Virus record (IMG/VR): IMGVR_UViG_3300033463_000076
Location: 1 to 64,000 of that record
Direction: 5' to 3' (one strand)
Source of the DNA: a virus
Taxonomy: Duplodnaviria; Caudoviricetes
DNA length: 64,000 nt
This document shows, piece by piece, positions 9,086-62,530 of the stretch; position 1 is the stretch's first letter; every line of letters begins with the position of its first letter. Made by a program: the position numbers and the translations under genes. The notes under the pieces were generated by a model, which worked only from the letters and a program-made list of their open reading frames with translations, made no database searches and was not told where the DNA came from.

Positions 9086-9198
9086 AAGTTAGGCGGGAGC
9101 CGTAGTTCGCATTCGTATTCGACCAAGCGTTATTCGAGTTGACGTACCCGAGACCCGCATTCGTGCCGTTATTCGCATTCGCGCCCACGAGACCCAAC
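9086..9198 (-). repeat. DGR template repeat (TR), 113 nt
   Basis: Matches 9374-9486 and 62008-62120, differing only at TR adenines; 10 AAY codons; reads LGLVGANANNGTNAGLGYVNSNNAWSNTNANYGSRLT. Confidence 0.95.
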
Positions 9199-22300: not shown

Positions 22301-24219
22301 TTCTCCTCCAGCGCGAGTCTCAGCTTGATATCGGCAGGACTCTCGGCGACCTTCTTTCTGAGGTCTTCAACCTCTTCCTGCAGGTCACTGATAAGGTCAT
22401 CGTATTTCTTGCGGACATCCTCGGCGACCTTCTCGTAGTCTGTGGGTATGTTCGTGTTCGATATCGTACCCTCGGCGATATCATGAGCCTCCTTGAGCAT
22501 ACCGGCGAGATCAGCGGCCTTCTTGTAGAACTTGTATATCTCCTCCTTCGCCTGGACGTTCTCGTTGGCTTCCTGAATCTTTATCTCGAGAGGCTTGCTG
22601 TTCTCAGCTATCTCCTGTCTGATGCGATTCATTTCAACGAGCTTAGAGATATAGATATCCAGTTCGGCCTCGGCCTCCTCCACATCTTTCTTCGATGTGT
22701 TATTGGTAGTCGTATATCCATACGTCGCAGCGTTCACCGTTTCCTCATAAGCGGCCTTAGTCACCTCAAGCTTTTCCCTCAGTTCGTCAACCTTCTGCTG
22801 GATATGCTCGAAGTTGGCTTCGTTCATCTGCTGGTTCAGCTCACGGTTGGCCTGAGCCAAGTCCATAGTGGCCACCTCTGCCTTCGAATACTTCTCCGTA
22901 AGGGTAGGAGCGGCCTTCGACAGCATTTCCCACGCTACGGCCTTATCGTATTCCGTCGCGCTTGCATCCTGCAGGGTGTTGATATAGCCCTGAATCTTAT
23001 TCTTCTGCTCGTCGAGACCGTCGGCGAACTTCTGCATTTCCTCGTTGGCCTTACGACGGGCGATAGTCTCTGCATCCTCGGCGGTAGCGAGCTTGTATGT
23101 CAGCACCACCAGCGTAGTGATGGCTGCTGCAGCCCACACGTAGGGGTTCATCAGGGTAGCCGCTGCGAGTTCCTTCGTGGCGACTATCAGTGAACGGCGA
23201 ACGTTTGTAAGCATGACCTCCATAGCTGCCTGACGTGCCTGTCCTGCCGTCAGTGCATGGCCAGCGGCCGTTGCGAGAGCCTGCTGTACCGCTGCCTCTG
23301 CCATCAGGGCATTGTTGGCCTTCTGAATGGCATTGACGGCAATCATGACAGCCTTGTACGATCCGATGGCAACTGCAGCCGTGCCGATAGCCTCACCGAC
23401 ACCTCTCCAGTTCTCGACGAGGTACGAGACGGCACCCAGTCCGGCGTTGATGACACCCTCAGACTGCTTACCCATATCGTTGAACATCATATCGACGGCA
23501 TCCTCGATGTTCGATATCTGTCCTACGATGGTCTTCGACTGCTCCTTCATGAGACCGCCGAACTTGCTGCCCTCGTTCGTCATATTGATAAACGCCTGAT
23601 GGAACACATCGGCCGTCACCTTACCTGCTGTTACCAAATCGGGTATCTGGTTCTTCGTGACGTTCAGCACCTTTGCAATCTCCTCGGCGATAGGAATACC
23701 TCGGCCCTGGAACTGCCTCAAGTCCTGCGTGAACATCCTACCCTGAACCATAGTAGTACCGTAGAGGTACACCAAATCGCTCAACTGGATAGACATACCT
23801 GCAGCGACATCACCCAGACGGACAATCATTTCGTTAACGTCATCGACGGCAGTGCCGTAGGCAAGCAACTGCTTGGCACCGTCGGCCACGCCTTTCAGGT
23901 CGAACGGGGTGGTGGCTGCAGTCTTGACCAGCTGATCCATCAGCTTCTGTGCGGCCTGTTCGCTTCCGAGCATCGTCTTGAAGGCCACCTCCAGCTGCTG
24001 GAACTGACCACGCACATCCATGATATCGCTTATCAGTTCCTTTGCGGAGAATCCTGCGAACGACAAAGCAGCCGCCTTCTTCAGACGGTCAAACATCTGC
24101 TCGACACCCATACCGGACTTCTCCACGTCCTGCATGGTAGAGCGGACACTGTTACGTACACCCTCCATCGACGTGAGGAATCCCTTGTTATCTCCAGTTA
24201 TAGCGAACTTTATAGGCAT
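19318..24219 (-). CDS. tape measure protein
   Basis: 1633 aa, helical; N-terminal tape-measure domain (AATTPFDL...AKQLLAYG...DLRQFQGRGIPI). Confidence 0.92.
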   Translation of the reverse strand: MPIKFAITGDNKGFLTSMEGVRNSVRSTMQDVEKSGMGVEQMFDRLKKAAALSFAGFSAKELISDIMDVRGQFQQLEVAFKTMLGSEQAAQKLMDQLVKTAATTPFDLKGVADGAKQLLAYGTAVDDVNEMIVRLGDVAAGMSIQLSDLVYLYGTTMVQGRMFTQDLRQFQGRGIPIAEEIAKVLNVTKNQIPDLVTAGKVTADVFHQAFINMTNEGSKFGGLMKEQSKTIVGQISNIEDAVDMMFNDMGKQSEGVINAGLGAVSYLVENWRGVGEAIGTAAVAIGSYKAVMIAVNAIQKANNALMAEAAVQQALATAAGHALTAGQARQAAMEVMLTNVRRSLIVATKELAAATLMNPYVWAAAAITTLVVLTYKLATAEDAETIARRKANEEMQKFADGLDEQKNKIQGYINTLQDASATEYDKAVAWEMLSKAAPTLTEKYSKAEVATMDLAQANRELNQQMNEANFEHIQQKVDELREKLEVTKAAYEETVNAATYGYTTTNNTSKKDVEEAEAELDIYISKLVEMNRIRQEIAENSKPLEIKIQEANENVQAKEEIYKFYKKAADLAGMLKEAHDIAEGTISNTNIPTDYEKVAEDVRKKYDDLISDLQEEVEDLRKKVAESPADIKLRLALEEKQKALDDILNMKAGWVATGATTIPLYFQIHYKEAEEGLENARNNGKEGMYFNYVTGKYERSASAAPTKTAAQWKADAYSKWKAAEKALDDYYKQKDEVDKETFDKKVEQLQADVDDAKKQYQKYGGSTSGKKGGTNDVAKRRAAALQEERRWQEELDDLRKRLDDARSDVRISYIRNEGERERAEQDEQHRRNIRQIEEQAEEMKKAVYEHNKRVWENAHKDGVYEDTAEGKAGWQGVTLSEDQNNLIKAQLEKEQNDYSRIIQQRYVDELTGMYDYLKQYGTLEQQRYAISKEYDRRIAEEHSKSRKMMLEADKKSALSKVNAQAMAMSIDWNQVFGGIGNVLEGIARETLQKVDEYMNTKEFKELDAADKKAYYDLRSQLVDAGGVQSASPFKASTWDDIAKYADEYKQRVRDFLNAQETHKNAVDKLIAAEKELQEATTPTAKMMAQMKVDMANQAVAESSEAVKKTEEEKNKANQNLKGATDSATQGLRKFDTILGQLTSGSLGGFATGIYNLINQISGSGKKVAATFSEIGGKVGGIIGAILQIIDALGEDPAQFIEDILNKIAKVIEAILKDLPQIIANVVQGVGNIIGGVVSGIGGLFGFDMSGVFGGGTKNFEAATKKWGWLLDTWKDNLEYEKKLMEEAYGEGVSAIMTKTERDLELTQKAAAEMYRAWASDGAGWFSHSNGYEANRDANWGYLWESDPELAKRMGAELRNFMGTQFQYVANGDISRLFDLSADELRDLKYSNRQFWQSLSEEARKYLDMIIEADDEMKKAVEEAREQLTGMSFDSLTSDFKSQLMDMDSDAKTFTEKFEKYMQNAIISSLMLSKYKARLEQWYKSFAEASESGSELTKQEQDALKKEYQDIVNDALKERDELRKSMGWSGGAYTQEASSKGFEAMSQDTGEELNGRFTALQISNDAISSQMILAVEHLTSIVTFSSSMASDVSEIRALVFTSTGYLEDMVRYAKLMYVKLGGSLEDIANNTKNL

Positions 24220-27132: not shown

Positions 27133-28446
27133 CTAATCACCGTTTACGACGTATTCGGCTACAGCCTCAATCAGTGCCTCCTCGTCCTCGTCAGAGAGTT
27201 CGTTGGCCTTCTTGATGACGGTATCGTCCTTCGTCTTAGCGTTATACTTGCTGCCAGCAATCTTATTCAGAGCACGTACGAAGCCCTCCTTGGTGTAGGT
27301 GACCTCCTTGTAGGTAATCTGAACGTCCTCAACGTCTGCAGCCTCCTTGACCTCGTCAACCTCAGCGGCCTCGTCGATGTCGAGGGTGTAAATCTGGTCA
27401 ACGTCCTCCAGGATAGGAGCAACGAAGGCCTGACCACTTGTAACCTCGCGCAGCGGGTCAACCTTAGAGTAGTTCGAGATCAGCTTGAAGACGTCGACGA
27501 GCTTGTAGTTAACCCACTTGACAGGGTTAGACTGCTCAGCCAGACGGCCGTAAACCAGCGTACCGACAACCTCGTTACAGATGAATACGAGGACGTTGCT
27601 TGCCCATGGCTTAACAGACTTCTTCTTGCCGTTCTTCTCACGGATGATGGTACGGTCGATGACACGGAAGGTCACGCCATACTCGTCCTCGAAGGCAGCG
27701 TTGAAGTTCTTGCTGTTAGGCACACCCAGACTGGTGTCGTCAGTGAACGAACGGCCCTCGAAAGAGGCAACCAGCTCACGTGCTCCACGGGTCTGACGCA
27801 GACGGTCGTATGCGGTCTTGGCGATACAAATCTGAATGATGCTGTTCTGGTCACGGTCACGTGCGGTGTCGAGTACACGCTTGATGTCCTCGATGGTCAG
27901 CTCACCCTTGGTGGTGACACCAAACTTATTCTTCTTCAGATAGTTGAAGTTCAGACGCATCAGAGACTTCTCAGGTGCATCGGGGTCTTCATCCTTAATG
28001 GCCACATAGCCGTGAGAGAGGGCGAACAGGAACGCATACTCATTCTGCTCGTCGATACCGACTGCACAGGCGACAGCATCGTCAGCAAGACGCTTGGCGA
28101 TCTTCTGAGCGTTACCGCCCTGGGCAATCATCACGTTCAGGTTGTTGATGTCGGACTCCTTGAGGTACTTCTTCATACCAACCTTCGGGAGCTTACCATT
28201 TGCCGAAGCAATGGTGTCACGGCTCTTCAAGGGGAGCTCAGAGTCAACAGCCACATAGTCGGCAGCAACGAACGTAGTGTTTACGGACGTGCTTTCCCAC
28301 TTGTTATCGGGGGCAAACTCAGTGCCCAGCATTTCCTTATGGAGATAGGTCAGAGGGCGAGTGCGCTTCTCGTTGACCTTCTCGATGTAGCGCTGGAGTT
28401 TCGGGAAAAACTTCGCAACGTACTTGTAGAACAAACTTTTCTGCAT
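27133..28446 (-). CDS. major capsid protein
   Basis: 437 aa; AADYVAVDSELPLKSRD...GKLPKVG motif; follows scaffold and decoration genes. Confidence 0.8.
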   Translation of the reverse strand: MQKSLFYKYVAKFFPKLQRYIEKVNEKRTRPLTYLHKEMLGTEFAPDNKWESTSVNTTFVAADYVAVDSELPLKSRDTIASANGKLPKVGMKKYLKESDINNLNVMIAQGGNAQKIAKRLADDAVACAVGIDEQNEYAFLFALSHGYVAIKDEDPDAPEKSLMRLNFNYLKKNKFGVTTKGELTIEDIKRVLDTARDRDQNSIIQICIAKTAYDRLRQTRGARELVASFEGRSFTDDTSLGVPNSKNFNAAFEDEYGVTFRVIDRTIIREKNGKKKSVKPWASNVLVFICNEVVGTLVYGRLAEQSNPVKWVNYKLVDVFKLISNYSKVDPLREVTSGQAFVAPILEDVDQIYTLDIDEAAEVDEVKEAADVEDVQITYKEVTYTKEGFVRALNKIAGSKYNAKTKDDTVIKKANELSDEDEEALIEAVAEYVVNGD

Positions 28447-32276: not shown

Positions 32277-32371
32277 AAAAACGCGCCCTAACCTCACGGT
32301 CCGGACGCGCAAGAGAGCTTGGTCAGTCGCTAAGAGCAATCCAAACGACTGCCTTCTCTCATTAAGAAACG
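32277..32371 (-). ncRNA. candidate antisense small RNA (sRNA-A)
   Basis: Promoter TTTG-N20-TATCTTTG (32375-32406); 5' tail GTTTCTTAATG; hairpin loop ATTGCTCTTA; terminator CGCGTCC..GGGCGCG-TTTTT with GTGA tetraloop. Confidence 0.6.
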
Positions 32372-32420: not shown

Positions 32421-33992
32421 TCATCTTCTCGGCCTAATCTTTCTCATAATCTCGGCGTCTGACATCGTATCGATCTTCGGATAGAACGTGTTGGCCAGTG
32501 CATCCATCCAGTCGGGCGACCGTCCGAGGCGTTCCTTGATATCGTCCTTCGGCTCTATGATGATACGGCCGTCGCTCTGGAACTTCCAGTGCGTATTGAT
32601 AGCCTCCTCCATCAGTTGCTCACACGGCGGCAGTGCTGGGTAGTAGCCGTTCTTCGGGTCGAGCCATTCCCTGACCTTCCAATACAGGTACGCCCTCATG
32701 TTGGCGAACTCTATCTGCCCAGTGCTGTCCTTGAACCCCTTGACACCCTCCGAGAACTTGCAGGAATAGACGTTCATCTTATACGTAGCCCTCGACTGCT
32801 CGTTCAGCTCCTTCAGCCTCGAGTAGACACCGGCACCCTCACCGATGGTATCGATGAAGGCCTTGTCACGCTTCCTGTCCGTCAGGGCATTGACAACCAT
32901 GCCGACAACGTGCATATGGTCGGCCTGACCTGCCGACTGGTGGGCAATGAACTGCGGCACGTAGTTGCCGTATCGGGGACACAGGATAGAAGCGTCTCGA
33001 CCCATACCGGCCACGTCGACACCCAGCAGGCATGACTTCTTGGGCTTGAACTTCTCTTCCTGCAGCTCCTTCCACCTGTTGACGGCCAGCTCGATCCACT
33101 CGTACGGTATGAGGGTATCGGTAGACACCTTCGGGAACAGACCCAGCACCTTGACACGGAACAGGTCGTTAGGACGGTAGTAGTTACCCTCCCACTCGAA
33201 ATCGCCGTCGCCTACGATGAAGTCGTCCTTACTGATCTTCGTGCACCACGTCTTGACCTTCTCGGCCACCCACCTATAGTCCACCTGACCAGGAATCAGG
33301 TTCTGCTTCGTCACGACATTCTCAGCATTGAGCGAGTTCAGACGGAACTTCTGAAAGCGGTCCTGAGTCATCGCCTTGGCGGCATAGCCCGTAGGGATGT
33401 TAGGGTTGAACACCAGCAGCAGACGAGAGTTACCTTGCAGGTTACCCTCGATGGCGTTGAAAATCGTCTCTGAGATACCAGTGGCCTCGGTCACGACGAA
33501 CATCACGTTAGCGGCATGGAATCCTGACCACGCCTCCGTAGCGTTGTTGTCGGCCTTGAATCCCGTCAAGAACCACTCGGCATAGTCCGTACGGATATCG
33601 TTCGCCACCAGTCTGCCAGGACAGGCAAACGGGAACTTGGCCCTTGCGGCCTTAACAAGTCTGTGGATTTCAGGCTTCATGATGTTCTCCACCTGACGGC
33701 CTGTAGGTGCGGTCATGGCGACCTTCGTGTTTTCCGACAGTATCTTTCCCGTAGGGTCGAACCTCGGCGTGAGATACATGAAGCATAATGAAGCGCAAGC
33801 GGCCACGAAGTCCTTACCTCGCGCTGTGCCGCTTGCTACTGCGGTCAGTGGATTGACCTGCACGGACTCAATGATAGCCTGCTGCTCTCTGTCAAGCCTT
33901 GCGCCCAACACGTCGCGTACAAACCTGTTCCAATCCTCTGCCCAATACTTAATCGCTTCATTTATCAGCCTCTGTCTCTCGGTGAGATTCAT
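32421..33992 (-). CDS. terL: terminase large subunit
   Basis: Walker A-like TAVASGTARGKD; VVTEATG Walker B; FRVKVLGLFP; nuclease GVDVAGMGRD; SPDWMDAL. Confidence 0.92.
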   Translation of the reverse strand: MNLTERQRLINEAIKYWAEDWNRFVRDVLGARLDREQQAIIESVQVNPLTAVASGTARGKDFVAACASLCFMYLTPRFDPTGKILSENTKVAMTAPTGRQVENIMKPEIHRLVKAARAKFPFACPGRLVANDIRTDYAEWFLTGFKADNNATEAWSGFHAANVMFVVTEATGISETIFNAIEGNLQGNSRLLLVFNPNIPTGYAAKAMTQDRFQKFRLNSLNAENVVTKQNLIPGQVDYRWVAEKVKTWCTKISKDDFIVGDGDFEWEGNYYRPNDLFRVKVLGLFPKVSTDTLIPYEWIELAVNRWKELQEEKFKPKKSCLLGVDVAGMGRDASILCPRYGNYVPQFIAHQSAGQADHMHVVGMVVNALTDRKRDKAFIDTIGEGAGVYSRLKELNEQSRATYKMNVYSCKFSEGVKGFKDSTGQIEFANMRAYLYWKVREWLDPKNGYYPALPPCEQLMEEAINTHWKFQSDGRIIIEPKDDIKERLGRSPDWMDALANTFYPKIDTMSDAEIMRKIRPRR

Positions 33993-34465
33993 TTACCCTT
34001 CTTCTTATCTTCCTGCTTATAGGAATCGGTAAGTGACTTCAATGCCTTTGCCCAGTCGTCATTGTTCAGATCAACGTCATGCTTATCCTTCCAGTGCTCT
34101 GGGTCACGGTTCTTCAACCAGAATATACAAGCCGTCACATCGGGCGGTACGTCCTCCTCGTATATCTCGATGCGGGCGGGCTTCTGACTGCCGTCATCGC
34201 CTCCTGCCTGAATGACCGTGCGCTTCTTCGTTATCTTGTAGCCCATGGCACGCTGATACAGCGACATCTCTACCTGGCTGTCAGCGAATCCGCGCCCCTT
34301 TTTTATGGCCTCCGATAACTCTTCGTTCTCCGCCACCCACTTGCTGAGTGTGGAGGGTGCTACCTCCAAATCGTTAGCAATCTCCTCGATGGTGTAGCCT
34401 TTCTGTGCCAGCCCCTTTATCCACGGGTCGTGGTACTTTGGGTTGTACTTTGACGGTCTTGCCAT
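33989..34465 (-). CDS. terS: terminase small subunit
   Basis: MARPSKY, HTH, SLYQRAMGY, PPDVTACIFWLKNR; ATGA-coupled to terL. Confidence 0.85.
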   Translation of the reverse strand: MARPSKYNPKYHDPWIKGLAQKGYTIEEIANDLEVAPSTLSKWVAENEELSEAIKKGRGFADSQVEMSLYQRAMGYKITKKRTVIQAGGDDGSQKPARIEIYEEDVPPDVTACIFWLKNRDPEHWKDKHDVDLNNDDWAKALKSLTDSYKQEDKKKGK

Positions 34466-35163
34466 TCTTCAACTTCCTTTAGTGCCAGCTCCGTGAGGAA
34501 CTGAATCGTCGCACCGATTGACTTGATGTTCTTCGTCTTTCCGAACTGGACCATCGCCTTGCTAAAGTCGTCGAAGAGGGCGAGGGGTGCGACCCCAACC
34601 ATTTCCGCCTTGCTGTCGATGGCCTTGACGAGAGTCTGGAAGTCCTTCAGCTGCTCCGGCAGGAACGTAAGCTGAATCGTCCTCCAGTCGAAGTCCAGCT
34701 GCGGCAAGTCCATGACGGGGCTTGCGGCCTCTATGGAGTTCAGGTACTTCTCGGGCAGACCCGACGCGATGATATCGTCGATCTCCTTCATCTGCTTGAC
34801 CAACTGGCCAAGGATTTCAGAGTCGGCAGTACCGACGAGCTCGTTGTGGGCAATCTGCTTTGACACTACCTGGGACTTCGTGAGTTCAGTAGTCTCTACA
34901 AGGGCGTAGATATACTTCAGTCCTGCTGCGTTGGCTGCTCTTACCCTGTGGTGGCCACTGATAATCGTGAACGTGTCGCCTTGCTTCAGGACGTAGGGCA
35001 GTGACTCCAGCGCTCCACGGTTCTTGATGTTTGCCGTCAGTATCTTCATACGGCGGTCATCCATCACCTGGGCGTTGATGTCCTGCTCCTTCAAATTACT
35101 GATGACGAGCTTCCATATCTCAAGCCCGCCATCCAGTTCCGCAATCTTAATGTTTTTTTCCAT
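34417..35163 (-). CDS. ParB/Srx N-terminal-domain protein
   Basis: IISGHHRVRAA motif. Confidence 0.8.
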   Translation of the reverse strand: MEKNIKIAELDGGLEIWKLVISNLKEQDINAQVMDDRRMKILTANIKNRGALESLPYVLKQGDTFTIISGHHRVRAANAAGLKYIYALVETTELTKSQVVSKQIAHNELVGTADSEILGQLVKQMKEIDDIIASGLPEKYLNSIEAASPVMDLPQLDFDWRTIQLTFLPEQLKDFQTLVKAIDSKAEMVGVAPLALFDDFSKAMVQFGKTKNIKSIGATIQFLTELALKEVEEWQDRQSTTQSTTTRG

Positions 35164-36601
35164 CTGCGTACCTTTCTTCTACCGTTAGAAAATCATTCAA
35201 TATCTCGTTTTCATCCTTCTCATTCAGGTCACCATAGTACGACAGGGCATTCAGCTCGTCGGACATCTTCTTCTTCGACTCGATCTTCATCAGACCACGT
35301 AGGCCTTTCACCTCATGATATCGTGAGTACTCCACCGTACAGATTCTGTTCGCCTGAACGAGATAGAACGTGTACTGGTTGGCCGTCGAGTTCACCAGGC
35401 ACTTGTTGATAATCTTCTTGCTCTTGGCGATATGCACCAGCAGACGGGCCATACGCATCTGAGTGTTCGGTGCGGGTACGGCATACGACAGGATAAAGAA
35501 ATCCTTCGTGTCCTGATACGACCGTACCAGCGGATTGAAGTCAAGGCCGATGAATCCCATCAGGTAGCCGTCCACGACCACGCAGAGGTTGAACGACACG
35601 CCCTTTCCGTTGATACGGTGCAGCCATATACGGCGGTAGTACTCGGCCACCTGTGTCTTCTCTATGAACACAGAGACCTTCGAATCCCTCGTGACACGGT
35701 AGTCAGTGGGCATGATAGGGTACTTCGACTTCAGGCGTACGGCCTCGTTCAGCGTGGCACCCTTCAGGCCGTTGATACGCTCCACCTCCTCGGGGCGGTT
35801 GCTGTTATAATAGACGTTCTGTGTCAGCGACAGGTATCTGGAGAACACTGGGTGCTCAGTAGCCGCCTTGCCCTTGTTGGCCTGTTGCAGCAGGAATATC
35901 AGCGGCTTGGCATCGACGGCCTTCTCCATCAGCTGCTTGCAATGGATGGAGCCGTCCCATATCTCATACTGGAAATCATCACCCGACCAGGTGATACGGC
36001 CTCCAGTGTCGAAGAACTTCTCATACGCTCCCTTGTACGTCGGCGGGTTGCTTATCATGAACGTGTCCTCGCTGTCCTTCTCCTTCTCGAAGGCATCCCA
36101 GATATACAGGTGCTCGAAATGGAGTCCGTGCAGCTGTTCGTCCATTCGTCTGACCCTCGAGGCGATATACTCGATATGGTGGTCACGCCTCGACCTCATA
36201 TCCTGCAGCAGCAGCTTGAAGTAGTATATCTCCTTGGCCTTGTCAAGACGTGCCAGCGCCTGCTCATAAAGCAGGATGGCGGCGTTCTCCACGTAGTCCT
36301 TTCCCGTAAGGGGTATAGGCTCACCGTCGAGGCGCACGTCCAGCTCTGCCACGTCCTTCCCTGAGAACGTATAGCCGAGGATGTTCGAATACAGCGATAT
36401 GTCGTAGCAGTACATATCCTCCGGCTTCATACCCTGCGAAGCGACAACGAGAGGCATGGCGAAACCGCCAGCGTACAGCTCGACATACTTTTTATAACCT
36501 TCTTTTCTTAACTTGGGAACTATTTCTGCCATATAACGACGATCAAGTGCGTCGTAGGTGTTCAGAAACATGATGTTCGGAGAATTAAAACCACCTGCCA
36601 T
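35147..36601 (-). CDS. N6-adenine methyltransferase-like domain fused to a putative GNAT/Mom-like domain
   Basis: Motif I VELYAGGF, YCYDIS, motif IV ISNPPTY; C-terminal WLHRI...VVVDGYLMGFIG. Confidence 0.65.
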   Translation of the reverse strand: MAGGFNSPNIMFLNTYDALDRRYMAEIVPKLRKEGYKKYVELYAGGFAMPLVVASQGMKPEDMYCYDISLYSNILGYTFSGKDVAELDVRLDGEPIPLTGKDYVENAAILLYEQALARLDKAKEIYYFKLLLQDMRSRRDHHIEYIASRVRRMDEQLHGLHFEHLYIWDAFEKEKDSEDTFMISNPPTYKGAYEKFFDTGGRITWSGDDFQYEIWDGSIHCKQLMEKAVDAKPLIFLLQQANKGKAATEHPVFSRYLSLTQNVYYNSNRPEEVERINGLKGATLNEAVRLKSKYPIMPTDYRVTRDSKVSVFIEKTQVAEYYRRIWLHRINGKGVSFNLCVVVDGYLMGFIGLDFNPLVRSYQDTKDFFILSYAVPAPNTQMRMARLLVHIAKSKKIINKCLVNSTANQYTFYLVQANRICTVEYSRYHEVKGLRGLMKIESKKKMSDELNALSYYGDLNEKDENEILNDFLTVEERYADGKKH

Positions 36602-41128: not shown

Positions 41129-41926
41129 TCAAGACGTCTTTCCTTTCTTTTCTGATACACTCTGTTCATAGTTCTCTATCTTTATCGGGTTTACTTTCAT
41201 CGTCTCGAGATTGACGAACGCTCCCTGCGTGTCGATCACTCCCTTGAACATCTTCCATAACAGGGCACATCCGACCTGTGCCAGCGTCGAGTTGATGAAC
41301 AAATCCTGCTTGCGTAACGCTGCAGCCAGTGAACAGCTCGGTCCGCTGTCATCATCCTTGACGGCTTTCAGGTCGTAATACTCTGCCACCGTGCGAAGAC
41401 TGGCAATACCATTCTCCTTCGGCTGCTTGTACTCCTTGCCGACCGTACCGAGAATAACCTGGCCACGGTCAGTCATATTGCCGAAGTCCAACCAGTACAT
41501 CGGCTTATCGTAGTCGTAATTCCTATCCTTTGACCTCAGACGGCTTGCTATGACCATACGGGCCTTGACGGTATCAACACAGGATATCGTTATATTGGCA
41601 CGCTTCGACTTGCTCCCGTACATCTTCGGAACACAAGACCATCTGGTACCGAAAAACATATTGACCTTCGTGGTCAGCACCTCAGCCTTGTTATGGCCTA
41701 TCTCCTGCATGGAGAACAACTGTCGGCCACAATTAGCCTCAGTGACGATATCACCGTCATAGACCGTCACCTGCAGACCAGGATGTCCCAGCTGCTGCAA
41801 AGCATAACTGATACGGCCGAGTGATGTCAGGACTTGCGAACCTGTACCGCCACAGCCTATCAACGAGACCGTCACAGGGTGGTACGGATTCAGCAGATAC
41901 TCATTTACATAATGCACTTGCTTCAT
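41129..41926 (-). CDS. PRTRC system ThiF (E1-like) protein
   Basis: IGCGGTGS, YDGDIVTEANCGRQLF, ISCVD, WLDFGN...GQVILG, GPSCSLAAALRKQDLFIN. Confidence 0.9.
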   Translation of the reverse strand: MKQVHYVNEYLLNPYHPVTVSLIGCGGTGSQVLTSLGRISYALQQLGHPGLQVTVYDGDIVTEANCGRQLFSMQEIGHNKAEVLTTKVNMFFGTRWSCVPKMYGSKSKRANITISCVDTVKARMVIASRLRSKDRNYDYDKPMYWLDFGNMTDRGQVILGTVGKEYKQPKENGIASLRTVAEYYDLKAVKDDDSGPSCSLAAALRKQDLFINSTLAQVGCALLWKMFKGVIDTQGAFVNLETMKVNPIKIENYEQSVSEKKGKTS

Positions 41927-42636
41927 ACGAACAGCGAATTAAACGTTTTACTAATCTTGACCATTTGTTCCGTCGGGAACTGCTTGCCTGTAGCAATACA
42001 CTCCTTCGTGATCACTGCGAGGTTACTCCTGACAGGATTGTTACCGATAAGGGATGCAAACTCAGACTTCCAAAACATATCCTCCCAGTAGGCTATCCAG
42101 TTCTCGAACGTGTTATCTTTCGGCTTCTGTACCTTTGCCGAACCAAGGCAGATACCACCGTCGCTATATACGTTGAAGAACGGGGCGGCATACAGGATGT
42201 TCTTCGGCTTCTTGCCCTTGAAAGCAAAGACACTTAGCCTTCGGCCATCGGCTACGTATATCAGCCCAGGCACCCACATCATGCCGTTCTCTATTCCCAG
42301 ACCCTTTGCGAAATACATCATCCTTTTCTCAGGGCCACGCCACCAAATCATCTTGTGGTGCTCCATACTGCTATTCGTGTATAGGAGGTTTGACGGTACT
42401 CTGCCGTGCATCGTAACAAGAGACGTGTTCTTGCCGACGTACTTGCTGACCGTCTTCATTATCTTTGCAAGCGTGTTAATCTCTAACGGACTGCCAGCAC
42501 CAAACTGGCCGTTGTCGATAGGACGATGCTCGACGAACGTTCCTTCCTTACTGCCTATCTTCTGCGTCGGCTTATAGAAAATGATAGCATCCGTCGGCTG
42601 CAGCTTGCTCTTTAACAAATCACTAAATGTACTCAT
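41923..42636 (-). CDS. PRTRC system protein B (prokaryotic E2 family D)
   Basis: WWRGP...VPGLIY...APFFNVYSDGGICLG...WEDMFWKSEF. Confidence 0.85.
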   Translation of the reverse strand: MSTFSDLLKSKLQPTDAIIFYKPTQKIGSKEGTFVEHRPIDNGQFGAGSPLEINTLAKIMKTVSKYVGKNTSLVTMHGRVPSNLLYTNSSMEHHKMIWWRGPEKRMMYFAKGLGIENGMMWVPGLIYVADGRRLSVFAFKGKKPKNILYAAPFFNVYSDGGICLGSAKVQKPKDNTFENWIAYWEDMFWKSEFASLIGNNPVRSNLAVITKECIATGKQFPTEQMVKISKTFNSLFV

Positions 42637-43831
42637 CCTCTTCTTCTTGAATCTTATCGAATTTCTTTACTGCGTGATAGAAGTCGACTATCCACTTCGA
42701 AAATCTGGAACCAAGGTCTATCGCTTCTGCGAACTCCCTGATATCATCGTCTTTCAATTCCTCACTGAGCCAAAGATGCAGGTTGTAGTCCACAGGATTG
42801 ACACCGCAGTTATAATCGTTCTCCAGCGCTTGGATAAGCGCATCCTCGATACCGTCATTGTCGCTATAGAGAATCGCCTGCTGTGAAAACACCTCGATAT
42901 ATCCGTCACCCTCTTCGGTGAAACCGTCGACATCAGGATTGAAATCAAACCAGTGGATATTCATCTGCTTGACTACCGGCAACCCGTCAACGATAACCTT
43001 GAAAAGATGACACACATCGAAATCATCACACTCCTCGATGTACTGCTCCATCCTCTCCTTCAGGTTCTCAGGATGCAGCCGTCGTATCTCCTCGAACAGC
43101 TTTTCATACTTACCGCCCTCTCGATAGGCAGCGACCGTATCACGACGCTTCTGAAGATGCTCCCTGTCCTCTCCTTCAAGTTCCTCGATGTCCTGGTCTG
43201 GGTCATCGTGGTAATTCATAATCATATCGAGGTAGTAGTTATCGCTGTTGGCACCGATATAGATACACATCGAATCCGACACGAAACTGATGAACTCCTT
43301 GTATAGCTCAGCAGCTTTAGGCGGTAGCGTTTCCGCTGGCGAGGCGATAAAGACGATAACCTTCATTTCCAACTCGGCGCACGGACTGTAGACCACAAAG
43401 TCGATATCTGCACAGTCTTCGTCATACGGATCATGCTTCAACGTCGCCAACTGGAATCCAAGTTCCTCCACCTTCGGCTCAAACCAGGAAATAAGCCCAT
43501 CGAGCTTTTCCACGATACTGGAACGCTTCTTCGGTGCGAAGTCGAACGGCTTACCGAAGAATCTCATGAAGCGCTCGACCGTACGACAAAGCCGGTCGTA
43601 GCTGCTGGCAATGTTCAGATTATAACAACTGCTCAGCTGCTCTTCCTTGACCGGCTTATCCTTCAGCTTGACATTCAGAAAAGCAAAGGGGTCATTCCAA
43701 CAGGGGGCAACAGCATTTGACTCTCTGACCTCTCGCCTCGGGCGTTCCTGAACGATCCGTGCAGGTCTTGCTCTACGATTTGATACAGGTCTCTGTGAAA
43801 CTGACCTCTCTGCTCTTCCGTACATACACAT
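42623..43831 (-). CDS. PRTRC-locus large acidic protein (protein F position)
   Basis: 402 aa between the C and B genes; start uncertain. Confidence 0.5.
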   Translation of the reverse strand: MCMYGRAERSVSQRPVSNRRARPARIVQERPRREVRESNAVAPCWNDPFAFLNVKLKDKPVKEEQLSSCYNLNIASSYDRLCRTVERFMRFFGKPFDFAPKKRSSIVEKLDGLISWFEPKVEELGFQLATLKHDPYDEDCADIDFVVYSPCAELEMKVIVFIASPAETLPPKAAELYKEFISFVSDSMCIYIGANSDNYYLDMIMNYHDDPDQDIEELEGEDREHLQKRRDTVAAYREGGKYEKLFEEIRRLHPENLKERMEQYIEECDDFDVCHLFKVIVDGLPVVKQMNIHWFDFNPDVDGFTEEGDGYIEVFSQQAILYSDNDGIEDALIQALENDYNCGVNPVDYNLHLWLSEELKDDDIREFAEAIDLGSRFSKWIVDFYHAVKKFDKIQEEEDEYI

Positions 43832-43838
43832 CGCTTCT

Positions 43839-44048
43839 TCATCCTTTAGTTCCTACCGTAGTCTTGAACTCATAGACGGCTACCTCGCCCTCCATCTTCG
43901 GGCCGTGGACGTTACTCGTCGTCAGCTCTGGATATGTGCCAGCGTAGAACTGCATCACCTCTTCGGGCGTCATTTCAGGGTCTGGGTCATCCAACTGACG
44001 GTTGCCGTACTTGAACTGTCTCTTTACTCCTTGAATCTGTAGTGCCAT
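43839..44048 (-). CDS. PRTRC system protein C (ubiquitin-like)
   Basis: RQFKY...LDDPDPEMTPEEV..FYAGTYPEL...TVGTKG, ending in Gly. Confidence 0.9.
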   Translation of the reverse strand: MALQIQGVKRQFKYGNRQLDDPDPEMTPEEVMQFYAGTYPELTTSNVHGPKMEGEVAVYEFKTTVGTKG

Positions 44049-44051
44049 AAC

Positions 44052-44687
44052 TTACTCCTCCTCTTCTATTGGTTCATTATCAGTGTCATTGTCATCATCG
44101 TTCAGCTCCATAGCATCCTGAAACGCTGCTGCAGTAGCATCGTCTTCAGACGTCTTTACATCCTTGCCGTCAGACTTATCCTCCTCGGCTCCGAACATCA
44201 GGCCCTCACCGCTGACCTGAAGAATCTCCTTCTCTACGGTGGCGATCAGCTTCTTGTCTGCATCGGGTACGGCCTCGGCTTTCTTCAGGATAGCCTTTGC
44301 GTCCTTGAACTTGTGTTCGTCCTTGTTCTTACGGGCGAGGGCAATCAGGTCGTCGAACGTCTTCTTGTTCTTTGCCTTGATGTCCTTCTCTTTCTTCGCC
44401 ATTTCAGAAGCCTTACGGGCGGTCTCTACGGACTCCTCGAACTCCTTGATGTTAGTCACGAGGCCCTGAGCCTTTCCGACGGACTGGAGGGCTTTGATGA
44501 AGCCTTCCTCGAACTCCTCCGGCGTACCGTTGGCCACGATCGGGACGATGTTATCAACTGCCTTGTCTTTCACTCCTTTCGTGTCAGACAAGAGACTCAT
44601 GGCGAGGTTCTCGCCGTTCTTGCGGATTGTCAACGTTATCTGCTGACCATCCTGCAGCACTGCTGCAATTTCCTTGAAAAATTCCAT
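44052..44687 (-). CDS. PRTRC system protein E
   Basis: Likely start MEFFKEIAA; PIVANGTPEEFEEGF motif; acidic tail. Confidence 0.8.
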   Translation of the reverse strand: MEFFKEIAAVLQDGQQITLTIRKNGENLAMSLLSDTKGVKDKAVDNIVPIVANGTPEEFEEGFIKALQSVGKAQGLVTNIKEFEESVETARKASEMAKKEKDIKAKNKKTFDDLIALARKNKDEHKFKDAKAILKKAEAVPDADKKLIATVEKEILQVSGEGLMFGAEEDKSDGKDVKTSEDDATAAAFQDAMELNDDDNDTDNEPIEEEE

Positions 44688-44738
44688 ATCACTTACGTTA
44701 AAAACTTGTTTCTTAATGCTGGCCAACCGGCCGCTCTC

Positions 44739-44894
44739 TTACTTGTTCAATGCTGAATAGTTCATCAACCAGGTTGCCGCTGTCTGCTGGCTTGCTCCTG
44801 TCTCTGTGACTATCTTCTCCAGTGTGCCCAGAAACGACTCTTTCTGAGCACGTGCGGAGTCGATTATCTTCCGCACGTTCTCAGGCGTTTCCAT
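44739..44894 (-). CDS. hypothetical protein (51 aa)
   Basis: METPENVRKIIDSARAQ...; starts right after the upstream stop. Confidence 0.45.
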   Translation of the reverse strand: METPENVRKIIDSARAQKESFLGTLEKIVTETGASQQTAATWLMNYSALNK

Positions 44895-46458: not shown

Positions 46459-48207
46459 TCACATTCCGATATAATCATGCAAATATTTCATCTGCGTGCC
46501 GTTCTTCAGGTCGATAAGGCCTTCCCACGACGAGTTAAGCAGCAGCCTGTTTCCGAATCCTGAGTAGGCCAGTTTCTGCATAGGAACGTAATCACCGCAC
46601 TGACTGATGAAACTCATTGCTTCATCAAGCTCCTGCTGTGTAATCTTTCCTCTTGCAGCGGCTTCCTCGACCATCCACGTGATATCCTTCTTCCTGGCCA
46701 TGGCGCCATACTTGGCCCAGCACAAACCGCCTCTTTCCATATTGGCCTTGATATACACCTTCTGAATACCGCACAACTCATACTGCTCGAACAGATCACG
46801 GAACACACGCTTTCCGATTCCGATACCCTGCATAGGCTCAGGCAGAACAAATTCCTCATGGTCGACCACAGGAATCTTAGAACCACCGGACTGCTCAAAC
46901 CTGAACAGACGGGTAAGGGTCAGCTTGGCATCATCCTTATCACGTGCGCTGTATTTCAAACGAACCTCTCCATCACCGCAGTCAATCAGGTGCTTATAGC
47001 CAATCCTGCACTCGTATTCATCACATATCCCCTCAAACTTCCTGTCGAACCTGCTGACGTTGAAGCCGGCCATCGCACTCTTATTGAAGGCCTCAACAGC
47101 CACAGCCCTCTTAGAGAATCCTCGGGTAATCAGCTCACTGCGTATCTCCTCAGTCATTTCAAACGGCTGCAGGGCCTTGCTTGCCTCATTCACCAACGAC
47201 CTGTTATCACGCAGCCAGTAGGGGAGCGTGCCCTTCTTACTGGCCTTGACGATCTCGGCGGCGTGGTCTGCCAGCCAGTTCTTCATGTTATCAGGAACAT
47301 CCGTCACCTCGTTCTTGCTCGGATCGTCATCATCAGCCCAGAAATCATCCTCGTCTTTCAGGATAGGAACGACGTAGCACATATCGTTAGGATGCCAGCC
47401 CGTCCACTTAATCGTTTTCGGGTACTTTCCTGCAAGCATATCGCAGATATCGCCGTTCGGCATACGGTCATGATGGCTCTTGCTCAGTTTTATCTCGAAG
47501 CCGATGACGAAGTCCATCTGCTGCCAGCGGGTCCACTCGGCTGTACGGTAGGCCATGTTTATCTCTGAACGGGCGAGACGGAGGGAACGGTACTCACAGT
47601 CCTCGCACTCGACGGCCTTTCCGTACCTCTCCTTGTAGTCATCCTTCAGCCTGTCGAAGTCCTTCAGGTACTTACTGAGACGCTTGCTGAGGGTAACGGC
47701 ATCGATACCCTTCTCCAGTGCCGACGAAATGGCGTACTCCATTTCCTGCTTCATGTTCTCCGACTGGTCCCAGATTGCTTCCGACAGGTGGAACTCCCCA
47801 CTGATCTTGCGCTGCTGGAAAGCCTTCAACACGTCGCTGTTCGTCTGATAGTACACCTTGTGCTTCTCACCTCCGGCCTTGGAACCGTAGTATTTCAGCA
47901 CCTTGTCAGCCAACAAGTCCTGAACGATGTTACTCTGCTTCCACTCGTCGCTTGTACCACGATGTATGATAGCGCCGATATCCTCGACGAAGCGGCTCTG
48001 CACCTTCCTCATCGCGTCCTTCGTCTCAGGGAAGTCGGAGAAACGGAACGGTACATCACTGGCGGCATATCCAGTACGCTCGGCTATCTTTGCCGTCTCG
48101 AGACTACACGCATCAAAGACACCCTGAACCAATAACAGGTATCGGTTCAGGCGGGCGTTCAACGACGTGTACTTACCCTTCTGGTTTATCCCCCTCGGTG
48201 TTCCCAT
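46459..48207 (-). CDS. MuF-like head morphogenesis protein with C-terminal GNAT-like domain
   Basis: RLARSEINMAYR, CDMLAGKYPK...WHPNDMCYVVP (MuF); VDHEEFVLPEPMQGIGIGKRVF...ANMERGGLCWAKYG (GNAT-like). Confidence 0.8.
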   Translation of the reverse strand: MGTPRGINQKGKYTSLNARLNRYLLLVQGVFDACSLETAKIAERTGYAASDVPFRFSDFPETKDAMRKVQSRFVEDIGAIIHRGTSDEWKQSNIVQDLLADKVLKYYGSKAGGEKHKVYYQTNSDVLKAFQQRKISGEFHLSEAIWDQSENMKQEMEYAISSALEKGIDAVTLSKRLSKYLKDFDRLKDDYKERYGKAVECEDCEYRSLRLARSEINMAYRTAEWTRWQQMDFVIGFEIKLSKSHHDRMPNGDICDMLAGKYPKTIKWTGWHPNDMCYVVPILKDEDDFWADDDDPSKNEVTDVPDNMKNWLADHAAEIVKASKKGTLPYWLRDNRSLVNEASKALQPFEMTEEIRSELITRGFSKRAVAVEAFNKSAMAGFNVSRFDRKFEGICDEYECRIGYKHLIDCGDGEVRLKYSARDKDDAKLTLTRLFRFEQSGGSKIPVVDHEEFVLPEPMQGIGIGKRVFRDLFEQYELCGIQKVYIKANMERGGLCWAKYGAMARKKDITWMVEEAAARGKITQQELDEAMSFISQCGDYVPMQKLAYSGFGNRLLLNSSWEGLIDLKNGTQMKYLHDYIGM

Positions 48208-48771: not shown

Positions 48772-50220
48772 TTATACTGCTCCCTCCTGTAAGAGCGAGC
48801 TTAACGTTGACTTGTTCTCTTCTGTCTGTTCCTGCTGAATCTGCTCCAGCGTCTTAACTGGGTCTTTCGACTTTCCATAGCGGATAATGGACTCCAAATG
48901 GCTCTCGATGGCCTTGCCACCGTTGGCCTTCAGACGCTTCTCGATCTCCTGCATTTCGTCCTTCGGGATGTACGGCGTAATGACGTGCTTGATACGGACG
49001 TTATCGACCTCCTTCTCCCACTCAGGGTCATCGGACATAATCTTCAGGAACGCCTTGATGACATTACCCTCACGACGGTATGCCTGAAGTAGCGGCTTGG
49101 ACTCCTGGCCAATCTTCAGGAACACGTCAATGAATATCGTCATACGGGCATCGTAGCCGATAGAGTTGAGCTGTATCATCTTCTCTACGCTGATATCGGC
49201 CATCTGGTTAATCTGCCAAAAGAACGACAGGCTTCTGTCGATGTGGTTCTTGTTAGCATCATTCGACTGATCCCACGAGACATACGATACATCGCCTGTG
49301 TTCTCCACACGGAAAATACGACGGCTCTCACCCTTATCCTCGTCGCCCTGCAGCTGACCGGCAATCTTCAGGATTGGCGTAGCATTCCAGGCGATAACGT
49401 CGCTGTCCCTCGAGTGGGTGTACTCCACATCCTCGCGCAAGTCGCTCGAACCCTGCTTCCACGTCTTTTTCTTACGCCAAGCATACACTCCAGGAATCTT
49501 CAGGATGACAACCTCGTCGCCATACGTGACATTTCCCTCTGCATCTTCATACAGGATGACAGGCTCCCAGTCGCCACCGTCCTTGCACCACTTGTACTTC
49601 CTGTCCTTCGTATAGGTCTCGAAGAACTCCAGTTCCTTGTCACCGACGGTCTTCTTGTAGTAGAACGACATGGCCAGCATATCATCCATTTCGTCCATCA
49701 GCGGGTACAGGACGACATCGTCATTCATCGGCGAATACACCTTGCACTTCAGCTTGTAGTCCGAATGGAAGCCGTACAGGTCATTCTCCTTCTTGACTGC
49801 ATACCACAACGTGAACATTTCGCAAGCGGCAAAGTACGCCAGTCCTCGTTCCATGTTCACGGTGTCGATGTCTGCCTCCTCATAGATACGCTCTATGGCG
49901 GTGGCGATCTTCTGACGAACCTCGTTATCGTCGATATCCTGGTACTCACGCTTGACGGGTATGGTGTGCATGAACTGATTGATACGGTTGACCAGCAGCT
50001 CTTCAAGTCCTATGGCTATCTGAGCGGCTTCGTCAACAGTGCCGTCGTCATGAACAACGTCAACACGTCCAGAGTCATCACCTGCTATCTTATGCTTGCT
50101 TGCATACAGCTCTTCCTTCAACTTATCCCACGCTGGCGGGTTGGTCGATTTCTTCATCAGGTCATTAACTATGGCATTACTGCCACGAGACCAGTCGAGT
50201 ATCTTCAAAAGTTCGTCCAT
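48772..50220 (-). CDS. portal protein (SPP1-like)
   Basis: Likely start MDELLKILDW at 50220; LYPLMDEMDDMLAMS; IPGVYAWR; HVITPYIPKDE. Confidence 0.85.
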   Translation of the reverse strand: MDELLKILDWSRGSNAIVNDLMKKSTNPPAWDKLKEELYASKHKIAGDDSGRVDVVHDDGTVDEAAQIAIGLEELLVNRINQFMHTIPVKREYQDIDDNEVRQKIATAIERIYEEADIDTVNMERGLAYFAACEMFTLWYAVKKENDLYGFHSDYKLKCKVYSPMNDDVVLYPLMDEMDDMLAMSFYYKKTVGDKELEFFETYTKDRKYKWCKDGGDWEPVILYEDAEGNVTYGDEVVILKIPGVYAWRKKKTWKQGSSDLREDVEYTHSRDSDVIAWNATPILKIAGQLQGDEDKGESRRIFRVENTGDVSYVSWDQSNDANKNHIDRSLSFFWQINQMADISVEKMIQLNSIGYDARMTIFIDVFLKIGQESKPLLQAYRREGNVIKAFLKIMSDDPEWEKEVDNVRIKHVITPYIPKDEMQEIEKRLKANGGKAIESHLESIIRYGKSKDPVKTLEQIQQEQTEENKSTLSSLLQEGAV

Positions 50221-50244
50221 CGATGTATTTTTGTTATAACGGCG

Positions 50245-50303
50245 CAAATATAGCAAAAAAACTCCGAAACTATTTGAAAAACAAAGAGAATTAACATTCT
50301 TTG
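50245..50303. promoter_or_regulatory. portal promoter plus palindromic element in divergent orientation
   Basis: Minus -7 TATATTTG (50245-50252); plus-strand TATTTG-AAAAA-CAAAGA-GAATTAAC-ATTCTTTG. Confidence 0.55.
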
Positions 50304-50417
50304 TCAAAATAGCCTCGGAGTAACATTAAGAAACTTGCTCGTAAAAAAGCAATGAAACGCCTCACGGCGGTATTTCCTAAACTAACTATTATTCCACCTA
50401 ACTCGCATAGCGGCGAC

Positions 50418-61930: not shown

Positions 61931-62530
61931 TCAGAACTTTCCTACGTAATCAACCCAGATATCCTTAAACTGCTTCCCAGAGTAGTCCGCCAACGCTTCG
62001 CTTTTATAAGCAAGGCGGGAGCCGGAGGACGCATCCGGATACGACCAAGCGTTAGACGAGGAGACGCACCCGAGACCCGCAGCCGAGCCGTTATTCGCAT
62101 CCGCGCCCACGAGACCCAACTTCTGCTTCTTCTCCTCGGTCATTTCCTCGATCTCCTCCTTCGTGTAATAGCGGAACCAGGGGAACCAGCGGTATTCGTC
62201 ATCAGTAAACTTCGGCTTCCAGCCTTCGTTCAGGGCTGCTGTGATGATACACAGCTTCATGAAAGCCACGATACCACTCGTCTTTATGTTCTCAGCATTC
62301 GACTCGTAATCTGCCAACATGGTACCAGCGTCATCGTCACCACGCTCTGCTCTGGCGCCTAACACCTTGCAGGCATCCTCGAACGTCTTCACTCTCTCCG
62401 TGATAGGCAGCAGACAATCCAGCACTCCGTCGTTATCAGCCTCGATATCGAACTCTGACAACAGACCCTTCACTTTCTCTCCGAAATCCTGTGCCACATC
62501 ATCGGGCACATTCAACATAATCTGTTTCAT
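61931..62530 (-). CDS. DGR target 2 (remote, non-tail)
   Basis: ITERVKTFEDACKVLG...ALNEGWKPKF..EYRWFPWF; carries VR2. Confidence 0.85.
   Translation of the reverse strand: MKQIMLNVPDDVAQDFGEKVKGLLSEFDIEADNDGVLDCLLPITERVKTFEDACKVLGARAERGDDDAGTMLADYESNAENIKTSGIVAFMKLCIITAALNEGWKPKFTDDEYRWFPWFRYYTKEEIEEMTEEKKQKLGLVGADANNGSAAGLGCVSSSNAWSYPDASSGSRLAYKSEALADYSGKQFKDIWVDYVGKF
62008..62120 (-). repeat. DGR variable repeat VR2
   Basis: Hand alignment: 17 mismatches to TR over 113 nt, all at TR adenines. Confidence 0.95.

Follow-up and report, generated by a model that had tools for sequence, protein, structure and literature searches.

A five-gene PRTRC cassette in a tailed-phage genome

The stretch of DNA analysed here, 64,000 nucleotides long and referred to as the window, is the first 64 kb of the 80,112-bp IMG/VR record IMGVR_UViG_3300033463_000076, a tailed-phage (Caudoviricetes) genome for which CheckV gives 100% completeness. 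A PRTRC cassette, with genes for a ubiquitin-like protein (Ubl) and for E1-like and E2-like enzymes, occupies positions 41129-44687, between the head-morphogenesis gene and the terminase gene. It consists of five co-oriented, tightly packed open reading frames (ORFs):

44052-44687, minus strand: PRTRC protein E, 211 amino acids (aa) counted from the ATG at 44687; PF19556, TIGR03741
43839-44048, minus strand: protein C, the Ubl (Prok_Ub), 69 aa, ending in GTKG; PF14454, TIGR03738
42623-43831, minus strand: protein X, 402 aa; no family match
41923-42636, minus strand: protein B, the E2-like carrier (Prok-E2_D); PF14460
41129-41926, minus strand: ThiF, the E1-like protein, 265 aa, a single domain; TIGR03736

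According to the ORF coordinates, 3 nt separate E from C and 7 nt separate C from X, while X and B overlap by 14 nt and B and ThiF by 4 nt. An earlier note on this DNA, made from the letters and their translations, had described this arrangement correctly. Its naming of E, C, B and ThiF is borne out by Pfam and NCBIfam matches; among the TIGRFAM PRTRC hidden Markov models that it proposed as a check, TIGR03741, TIGR03738 and TIGR03736 score above their cut-offs and TIGR03737 below. Of the five proteins, only ThiF has a PHROG match, a weak one, and blastn of the cassette against GenBank phages returned a single match, a 6.6-kb faecal-virome fragment.

Relatives were collected by scanning IMG/VR with the Ubl alignment, which gave 40 viral contigs (25 records were used for gene tests), and by a metagenome scan, which gave at least 525 loci, 80 of them kept for layout analysis. 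The order E-C-X-B-ThiF is present in all 40 viral contigs, as far as each contig extends, and in every one of the 80 metagenome loci that extends far enough. The phage setting described in the earlier note is correct.

The ubiquitin-like protein and the missing peptidase

Protein C is matched by PF14454 at 6.7e-28 and by TIGR03738 with 84.8 bits (cut-off 45.95); no solved structure matches its profile by sequence. It had been proposed to be translated in its mature form, and the family agrees: the 69-residue protein ends in GTKG, all 120 homologs listed have a C-terminal Gly (119 of them in a GTKG motif), and the same holds for the C-terminal Gly of all 80 Ubl ORFs from metagenome contigs.

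The reported absence of a JAB-type protein A also stands when the whole 80,112-bp record is searched, neither TIGR03735 (protein A) nor PF14464 (Prok-JAB) giving a match. TIGR03735 is likewise without a match in the 25 related viral records, the positive control from Syntrophorhabdus aromaticivorans (locus L004) scoring 112.8 bits. Prok-JAB is above cut-off in none of the 16 viral records that are at least 90% complete; one of these has a weak match, of 17.7 bits, far from the cassette. Loss of the peptidase is not peculiar to this phage, however, but fixed throughout the Bacteroidales clade, including its conjugative transposons. In 61 metagenome loci the E1 gene directly follows the E2 gene, and the median distance from E2 stop to E1 stop is 776 nt, therefore leaving no space for a JAB gene.

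In the two classical JAB-containing cassettes compared, a small sample, the Ubl continues beyond the Gly. The Syntrophorhabdus protein has GTKG followed by a 46-residue tail, and that of the cultured Ralstonia phage Dina (NC_055026) has GRKG followed by a 62-residue tail. The simplest reading of these sequences is that in classical PRTRC systems the JAB peptidase carries out maturation of the Ubl, and that tail and peptidase were both lost in the Bacteroidales branch; loss of JAB would then accompany a Ubl that is made already finished. Because the Ubl is translated with its Gly end in place, no trimming peptidase should be needed and, because no peptidase is encoded, the element itself would be unable to remove the tag. 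Host enzymes might do so.

E1-like and E2-like enzymes

The E1-like ThiF scores 248.8 bits against TIGR03736 (cut-off 144.75). In 18 aligned copies, sharing 44-65% identity, the GxGGTG nucleotide loop at residues 24-29 is invariant, as are D57, R68-Q69, N79-K80, D118 and C198, the latter residing in a GPSCS motif. Among solved structures, its closest sequence matches are to the active adenylation domains of Uba1 (E 3e-7). Matches to Cap2 are weak and lie in the Rossmann region (PDB 7tsx at 2.4e-5; NF058523 at 3.8e-7), and the protein falls far under the cut-offs of the ThiF/MoeB equivalog models (NF006395, 32.7 against 159; TIGR02356, 24 against 275).

The E2-like protein B is matched by PF14460 at 7.8e-34, with 117.3 bits against a cut-off of 25; no solved structure matches its profile by sequence. 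Seven residues (P152, F153, N155, C163, G165, E185 and F188) are invariant in all 89 homologs. Cys163 sits in a GICLG motif, with Asn155 eight residues upstream. In eukaryotic E2s, the spacing between the Asn of the HPN motif and the catalytic Cys is also eight. Both cysteines singled out in the earlier note, those of GICLG and GPSCS, are therefore real and are conserved in every copy aligned.

Protein X

The protein encoded between the Ubl and the E2 has no Pfam, NCBIfam, PHROG or PADLOC family. Its close homologs number 16, all metagenomic, and a profile search of 1.8 billion representatives returned 52 clusters of 360-415 aa. Among the distant homologs are hypothetical proteins from Bacteroides pyogenes and B. 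heparinolyticus, and the locus tag of the B. pyogenes one (IX307_001341) is next to that of the Ubl (IX307_001340). In 13 viral loci a single-sequence search did not pick up X, but each has an open frame of 381-413 codons, from stop to stop, filling the gap between C and B, and 11 of these 13 frames join the database homologs in one family by transitive matches.

In 56 sequences, conservation of at least 80% is reached only at F51, L52, F180, Y236, G240, L276, G283, D326, the 337 column and W380; the 337 column has N in most sequences and E in the window. As conservation is this thin, a conserved active site is unlikely. The predicted model (m2aac866db286; mean predicted local distance difference test score, pLDDT, of 70.8 and predicted template-modelling score of 0.71) is mostly helical, and its N-terminal 70 residues are disordered yet hold the conserved Phe51-Leu52 motif. 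Neither Foldseek on the PDB nor VIA-align wide found a fold match for the model that exceeded background, the best Z being 5.1 for helical segments, and the ESM Atlas gave no usable match. Complex prediction of X with E2 and Ubl gave a score of 0.00, which is uninformative either way.

X occupies the slot of protein F in phage Dina and that of an unassigned 335-aa protein in Syntrophorhabdus. Aligning its profile by hhalign revealed no similarity to the Syntrophorhabdus middle protein, and the probability for Dina protein F was 0.3%, i.e., no similarity; TIGR03742 (protein F) has no match at E<=0.1 in the genome and scores 352.8 bits in Dina. X is the fastest-evolving component of the cassette, with a median identity to the window protein of 26%. 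On these comparisons X appears to be a single, very divergent family in the F position, and it is the component most likely to hold specificity.

Protein E and the sequence upstream of it

Protein E is matched by PF19556 at 1.5e-28 and by TIGR03741 with 62.5 bits (cut-off 37.95). A mechanical call opens its ORF with the TTG at 44726, but the start is most likely the ATG at 44687, as the earlier note had assumed: counted from there, the Pfam match starts at residue 2, and relatives have a length of about 200 aa. A small N-terminal alpha/beta domain is followed by a long helix rich in Lys and Glu and by an acidic tail. In the alignment, an FG motif is invariant and is followed by EDxSDGK, kept in most copies. 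The model (m07cdbd43d0a4) has a mean pLDDT of 71, and Foldseek found no match to it in the PDB at E<=0.001.

The earlier note had placed in the leader of E a box targeted by a small RNA (sRNA-A), which would make the cassette part of its regulon. The box is indeed there:

44708-44718, minus strand: CATTAAGAAAC box, exact match, 21 nt upstream of the E start codon

With up to one mismatch, CATTAAGAAAC occurs eight times in the window against 0.86 copies expected by chance, and its reverse complement is present in a minus-strand transcript at 32360-32370, beside the complement of a start-codon tag. That tag, TAAGAGCAATG, is absent from E and is found on the 218-aa ORF upstream. In the viral loci, the box precedes E in no more than two, the window and its closest relative (L044); the wiring is therefore local to the immediate lineage of the phage.

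Between the 218-aa ORF and protein E there is a minus-strand ORF of 51 codons (44739-44894; first residues METPENV), whose ATG shares bases with the stop codon of the gene before it (TAATG). One group of phages (L017, L035, L036, L037, L040, L041 and L042) has a GC-rich hairpin directly before the E start, within the 45 nt upstream. Its stems vary by compensatory changes (GGCCA/TGGCC, GGCGG/CCGCC, GGGAG/CTCCC) and its loop, TAACCA, is conserved; the window has GGCCggttGGCC at about 44722-44733. The hairpin may serve in regulation or processing of the cassette.

Distribution among phages and selection

Phage carriage extends over at least two lineages, because two terminase types are present: eight of the 25 records have a terminase of the window type (64-70% identity) and eight others one of the Terminase_6N type. 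Two records have direct terminal repeats, related viral records are classed as proviruses, and the Bacteroidetes transposon gene TraG was found in none of the 25.

Median identity to the window proteins decreases from 71% for the Ubl through 59% for E1, 46% for E2 and 39.5% for E to the value given above for X. All five genes are under purifying selection, with pairwise ratios of non-synonymous to synonymous substitution (dN/dS), calculated in three phage groups, of 0.0 to 0.28. The Ubl has the lowest values, and in two of these groups the highest belong to X. The cassette is a fixed part of whole phage lineages, not variable cargo.

Conjugative transposons and ThiF phylogeny

Sixteen of the metagenome loci are located downstream of genes for a DUF4099/DUF3945 protein and topoisomerase III, and the Bacteroides thetaiotaomicron transposon genes BT2643-BT2649 show a matching context (PMC10434189). 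This transposon context is taken from metagenome contigs and that one paper; its DUF4099/DUF3945 and topoisomerase III markers occur in no viral locus. A quick maximum-likelihood tree of ThiF places all 14 transposon-context copies together in a single clade free of phage rows (support of 98 in the Shimodaira-Hasegawa-like approximate likelihood ratio test), and the window belongs to a clade of 24 phage or unlabelled rows with a support of 93. Provisionally, phage and transposon ThiF copies thus appear to form separate clades, which argues against a recent capture of transposon DNA.

Two transposon-context loci have further genes after the cassette, encoding an RHS-repeat toxin-like protein in one (L098, 13861-18156) and, in the other (L117, 18496-19587), an Imm5 immunity-family protein together with an integrase.

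Genome setting

The phage's genes are almost all on the minus strand. The structural and packaging genes recognised by PHROG matches are:

48772-50307: portal protein
46459-48207: MuF-like head-morphogenesis protein
32421-33992: large terminase
27133-28446: major head protein
19318-24219: tape-measure protein

The earlier note reported no linked ParB. This is right for the PRTRC-type ParB (TIGR03734), which has no match at E<=0.1 in the genome; it is not right for ParB at large, as a generic ParB_N-domain ORF of 248 aa is found at 34417-35163, 6 kb downstream of the cassette. This ORF appears to belong to a terminase-adjacent module separate from the cassette. Together with an upstream 484-aa protein (phrog_7858; the pair spans 34417-36601 in the window), it recurs before the terminase in L005 and L010, and ParB_N homologs precede the terminase in other window-type phages too. 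Protein D (TIGR03739) likewise has no match at E<=0.1 in the genome, a weak test, no control being above the cut-off.

The window also contains a diversity-generating retroelement (DGR). Its template (9086-9198) matches variable regions at 9374-9486 and 62008-62120, with mismatches only at template adenines (18 and 17 sites, respectively). The second target is a 199-aa protein (61931-62530) that belongs to no Pfam or NCBIfam family. Targeting of the E2-like protein B by the DGR was considered and rejected: the template matches these two variable regions only, and B is not hypervariable, showing no excess variation among six near-identical phages (within L024-L030).

Comparison with known systems

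PRTRC had been described in the earlier note as known mainly from plasmids and from integrative and conjugative elements. It is not confined to these. For phage Dina, RefSeq annotates a full E-C-F-B-A-ThiF set (gp02-gp07); PRTRC matches are also present in Burkholderia phage BgVeeders33 and Ralstonia phage YO105_4, and the Ubl homologs include a GenBank record named 'Prokaryotic Ubiquitin [Caudoviricetes sp.]'. In a Phocaeicola vulgatus prophage, followed in mice with a defined community, PRTRC protein B is a hotspot of variation and mutation (bioRxiv 10.64898/2026.10.01.756045). That prophage resembles the window phage in being a temperate Bacteroidales phage with both a DGR and PRTRC protein B; it differs in that the DGR template of the window has no match in the E2 gene and B shows no excess variation.

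With classical PRTRC systems (TIGR03734-03742; Dina and Syntrophorhabdus), the cassette shares the E, C, B and ThiF families and the gene order, a helical protein of about 335-400 aa between C and B, G[TR]KG at the end of the Ubl domain, and carriage on mobile elements. It differs from them in lacking protein A (JAB) and matches to the ParB, D and F models; in a Ubl that stops at the Gly, where theirs has a tail of 46-62 residues; in an E2 that scores under the TIGR03737 cut-off; and in an X without sequence similarity to F. The Syntrophorhabdus cassette adjoins a gene for a BrxD-like ATPase (L004, 2738-4090; NF033438 at 4.6e-41), which hints at a defence-island setting for that copy.

Identical in layout is the transposon cassette BT2645-BT2649 of B. 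thetaiotaomicron (PMC10434189), also JAB-less, ordered E-C-X-B-ThiF and with a Gly-ended Ubl. In the transposons the E ORF reaches about 320-370 codons, compared with 211 aa in the window, the Ubl match spans 73 codons against 69, with 58-63% identity to the window Ubl, and these cassettes stand downstream of DUF4099/DUF3945 and topoisomerase III genes and in a ThiF clade separate from that of the window. In the survey of Iyer, Burroughs and Aravind (2006; PMC1779556), operon type 6d comprises a Ubl, an E1-like and an E2-like protein and a 'rapidly diverging alpha-helical protein'. The window cassette has this Ubl, E1 and E2 content, and X is mostly helical and the most divergent component.

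The likeness to BilABCD is a mechanistic analogy, namely transfer of a Ubl from E1 to E2 to target through two cysteines. In Bil, an anti-phage host defence, the Ubl is conjugated in this way (PMC10557695); its E1 has an inactive and an active adenylation domain and a mobile Cys domain, whereas the E1 of the window is a single domain of 265 aa, and its JAB protease, which matures the Ubl, has no counterpart in the cassette. PADLOC applied to the cassette gave no Bil match; its only matches, all weak, were of the Rossmann part of the E1 with Cap2-type E1-E2 models. Cap2 of the cyclic-oligonucleotide-based anti-phage signalling system (CBASS) is an E1-E2 fusion that conjugates the cGAS/DncV-like nucleotidyltransferase (CD-NTase) itself, and its likeness to the window is limited to this weak E1 similarity. 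CBASS further includes Cap3, a JAB protease, which the cassette lacks, and the cassette has no adjacent CD-NTase or effector gene.

Proposed mechanism and alternatives

We infer the chemistry of the cassette from family membership and the invariant residues. The ThiF-type E1 would adenylate the free C-terminal Gly69 of the 69-aa Ubl and take it over as a thioester on Cys198; the Ubl would then move on to Cys163 of the E2, which would join it to lysines of target proteins. X would most likely be a non-enzymatic adaptor choosing the target, or itself the target, and E a second accessory protein. The targets may be host proteins or the element's own. Because of the position of the cassette among lytic-cycle genes or, in transposons, in the topoisomerase region, it probably acts while the element is active, i.e., during lytic growth of the phage or excision and transfer of the transposon, which suggests takeover, counter-defence or self-regulation rather than defence in the resting state.

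We consider it probable that the cassette is a functional, phage-maintained, JAB-less Bacteroidales branch of PRTRC (operon type 6d) with the Ubl-tagging chemistry and the accessory roles of X and E just proposed. Several points weigh against this. The E2 scores 96.3 bits with TIGR03737, under the curated cut-off of 131.45. A His C-terminal to the catalytic Cys of the E2 is described as "absolutely conserved" in operon type 6d (Iyer et al. 2006, PMC1779556); the corresponding position 195 is His in 73 of the 89 homologs but Ala in the nearest relatives and Ser in the window. Homology between X and protein F lacks sequence support. No biochemical or expression data on any PRTRC system were found in the literature searched, and no functional study of PRTRC, Prok-E2 or Prok_Ub was found in the searchable literature. 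Finally, nothing in the data identifies the target of tagging, and the anti-defence role raised in the earlier note, with host defence proteins as targets, is speculation.

The question raised in the earlier note, whether the region is an independent fragment of an integrative and conjugative element, can be answered in the negative. The five-gene layout is shared with Bacteroides conjugative transposons, but a decaying transposon fragment caught by a phage is refuted by the 40 viral contigs with the same gene order, the absence of TraG from 25 viral records, the intact frames, the invariant catalytic residues, dN/dS values of at most 0.28 and the separate ThiF clade of the transposon copies. 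A sulfur relay, in which the Ubl would carry a thiocarboxylate as in ThiS or MoaD and thiolate a nucleic acid or cofactor, is very unlikely: the single-domain, ThiF/MoeB-like E1 with its weak matches to ThiF models would suit it, but the E1 is far under the ThiF/MoeB equivalog cut-offs (32.7 against 159), every copy comes with a dedicated E2 whose Cys and Asn are invariant, and no Pfam or NCBIfam rhodanese or desulfurase domain was detected in the five cassette proteins, the neighbouring genes not having been screened for such domains.

For the biological role, counter-defence or host takeover is possible, if tentative. Host immunity or other host proteins would be tagged irreversibly, early in infection or after transposon entry, with X as a variable specificity subunit. 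X and E diverge fastest (26% and 39.5% median identity) while the Ubl, E1 and E2 are kept (71%, 59% and 46%), the module is common to phages and conjugative transposons of the same hosts, the box before E is shared with other accessory genes and has its antisense in a small RNA beside the terminase (32277-32371), and the tag is not removed by anything the element encodes; on the other hand, X is under purifying, not positive, selection gene-wide (dN/dS 0.12-0.28), no anti-defence family is matched, and the reasoning is by analogy only. A Bil-like defence or superinfection exclusion borne by the prophage or transposon, by which a lysogen would tag structural proteins of invading phages, seems unlikely, even though the phage is temperate (related records are proviruses), the characterised bacterial E1/E2/Ubl systems considered here, Bil and CBASS Cap2, are anti-phage (PMC10557695), and a sporadic distribution on mobile elements resembles that of defence genes (PMC1779556). 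The PADLOC matches to Cap2-type proteins are weak and restricted to the E1 Rossmann region; the cassette is on the same strand as the lytic genes and between them, with portal and MuF on its upstream side and the terminase on its downstream side, rather than at a prophage end; whole phage lineages have it as a fixed component, not as variable cargo; and the transposon copies follow DUF4099 and topoisomerase genes. In CTnDOT, the DUF4099/topoisomerase region is tied to excision. We also give a low probability to self-regulation, in which the Ubl would be attached to proteins that the element itself encodes (E, X, or ones for packaging or replication) to time the life cycle. The lysine-rich E, with its acidic tail and an SDGK motif in most copies, could be such a substrate, classical PRTRC is named for its link to ParB partition-type genes (NCBIfam names), and window-type phages have a ParB_N gene and the terminase a few kb downstream of the cassette; yet this ParB_N gene is generic and is missing from the neighbourhood of the cassette in other lineages, and no substrate is backed by direct evidence.

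Implications

PRTRC itself and its carriage by phages were already known, from the Dina annotation, the GenBank entry and the 2026 preprint. Four points are new: a five-gene Bacteroidales sub-type without JAB is delimited, JAB loss is linked to a Ubl that has no tail, X appears to be one very divergent family in the F position, and phage and transposon clades are provisionally separate. Bil and CBASS Cap2 are host defences, whereas the PRTRC cassette rides on phages and conjugative transposons. As a speculation that we regard as rather improbable, Bacteroidales phages and transposons would use this protease-less kit offensively, with X as a fast-evolving E3-like receptor for the irreversible tagging of host immunity or other host proteins; if true, it would be the first ubiquitin-like counter-defence system from a bacterial mobile element. 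Predicted in 2006, PRTRC is widespread among mobile elements. The compact five-gene sub-type delimited here, which has a ready-made tag and lacks a deconjugating enzyme, is fixed in Bacteroides conjugative transposons and in entire lineages of phages of gut Bacteroidales, and it offers a tractable way to study the use that mobile elements make of ubiquitin-like tagging.

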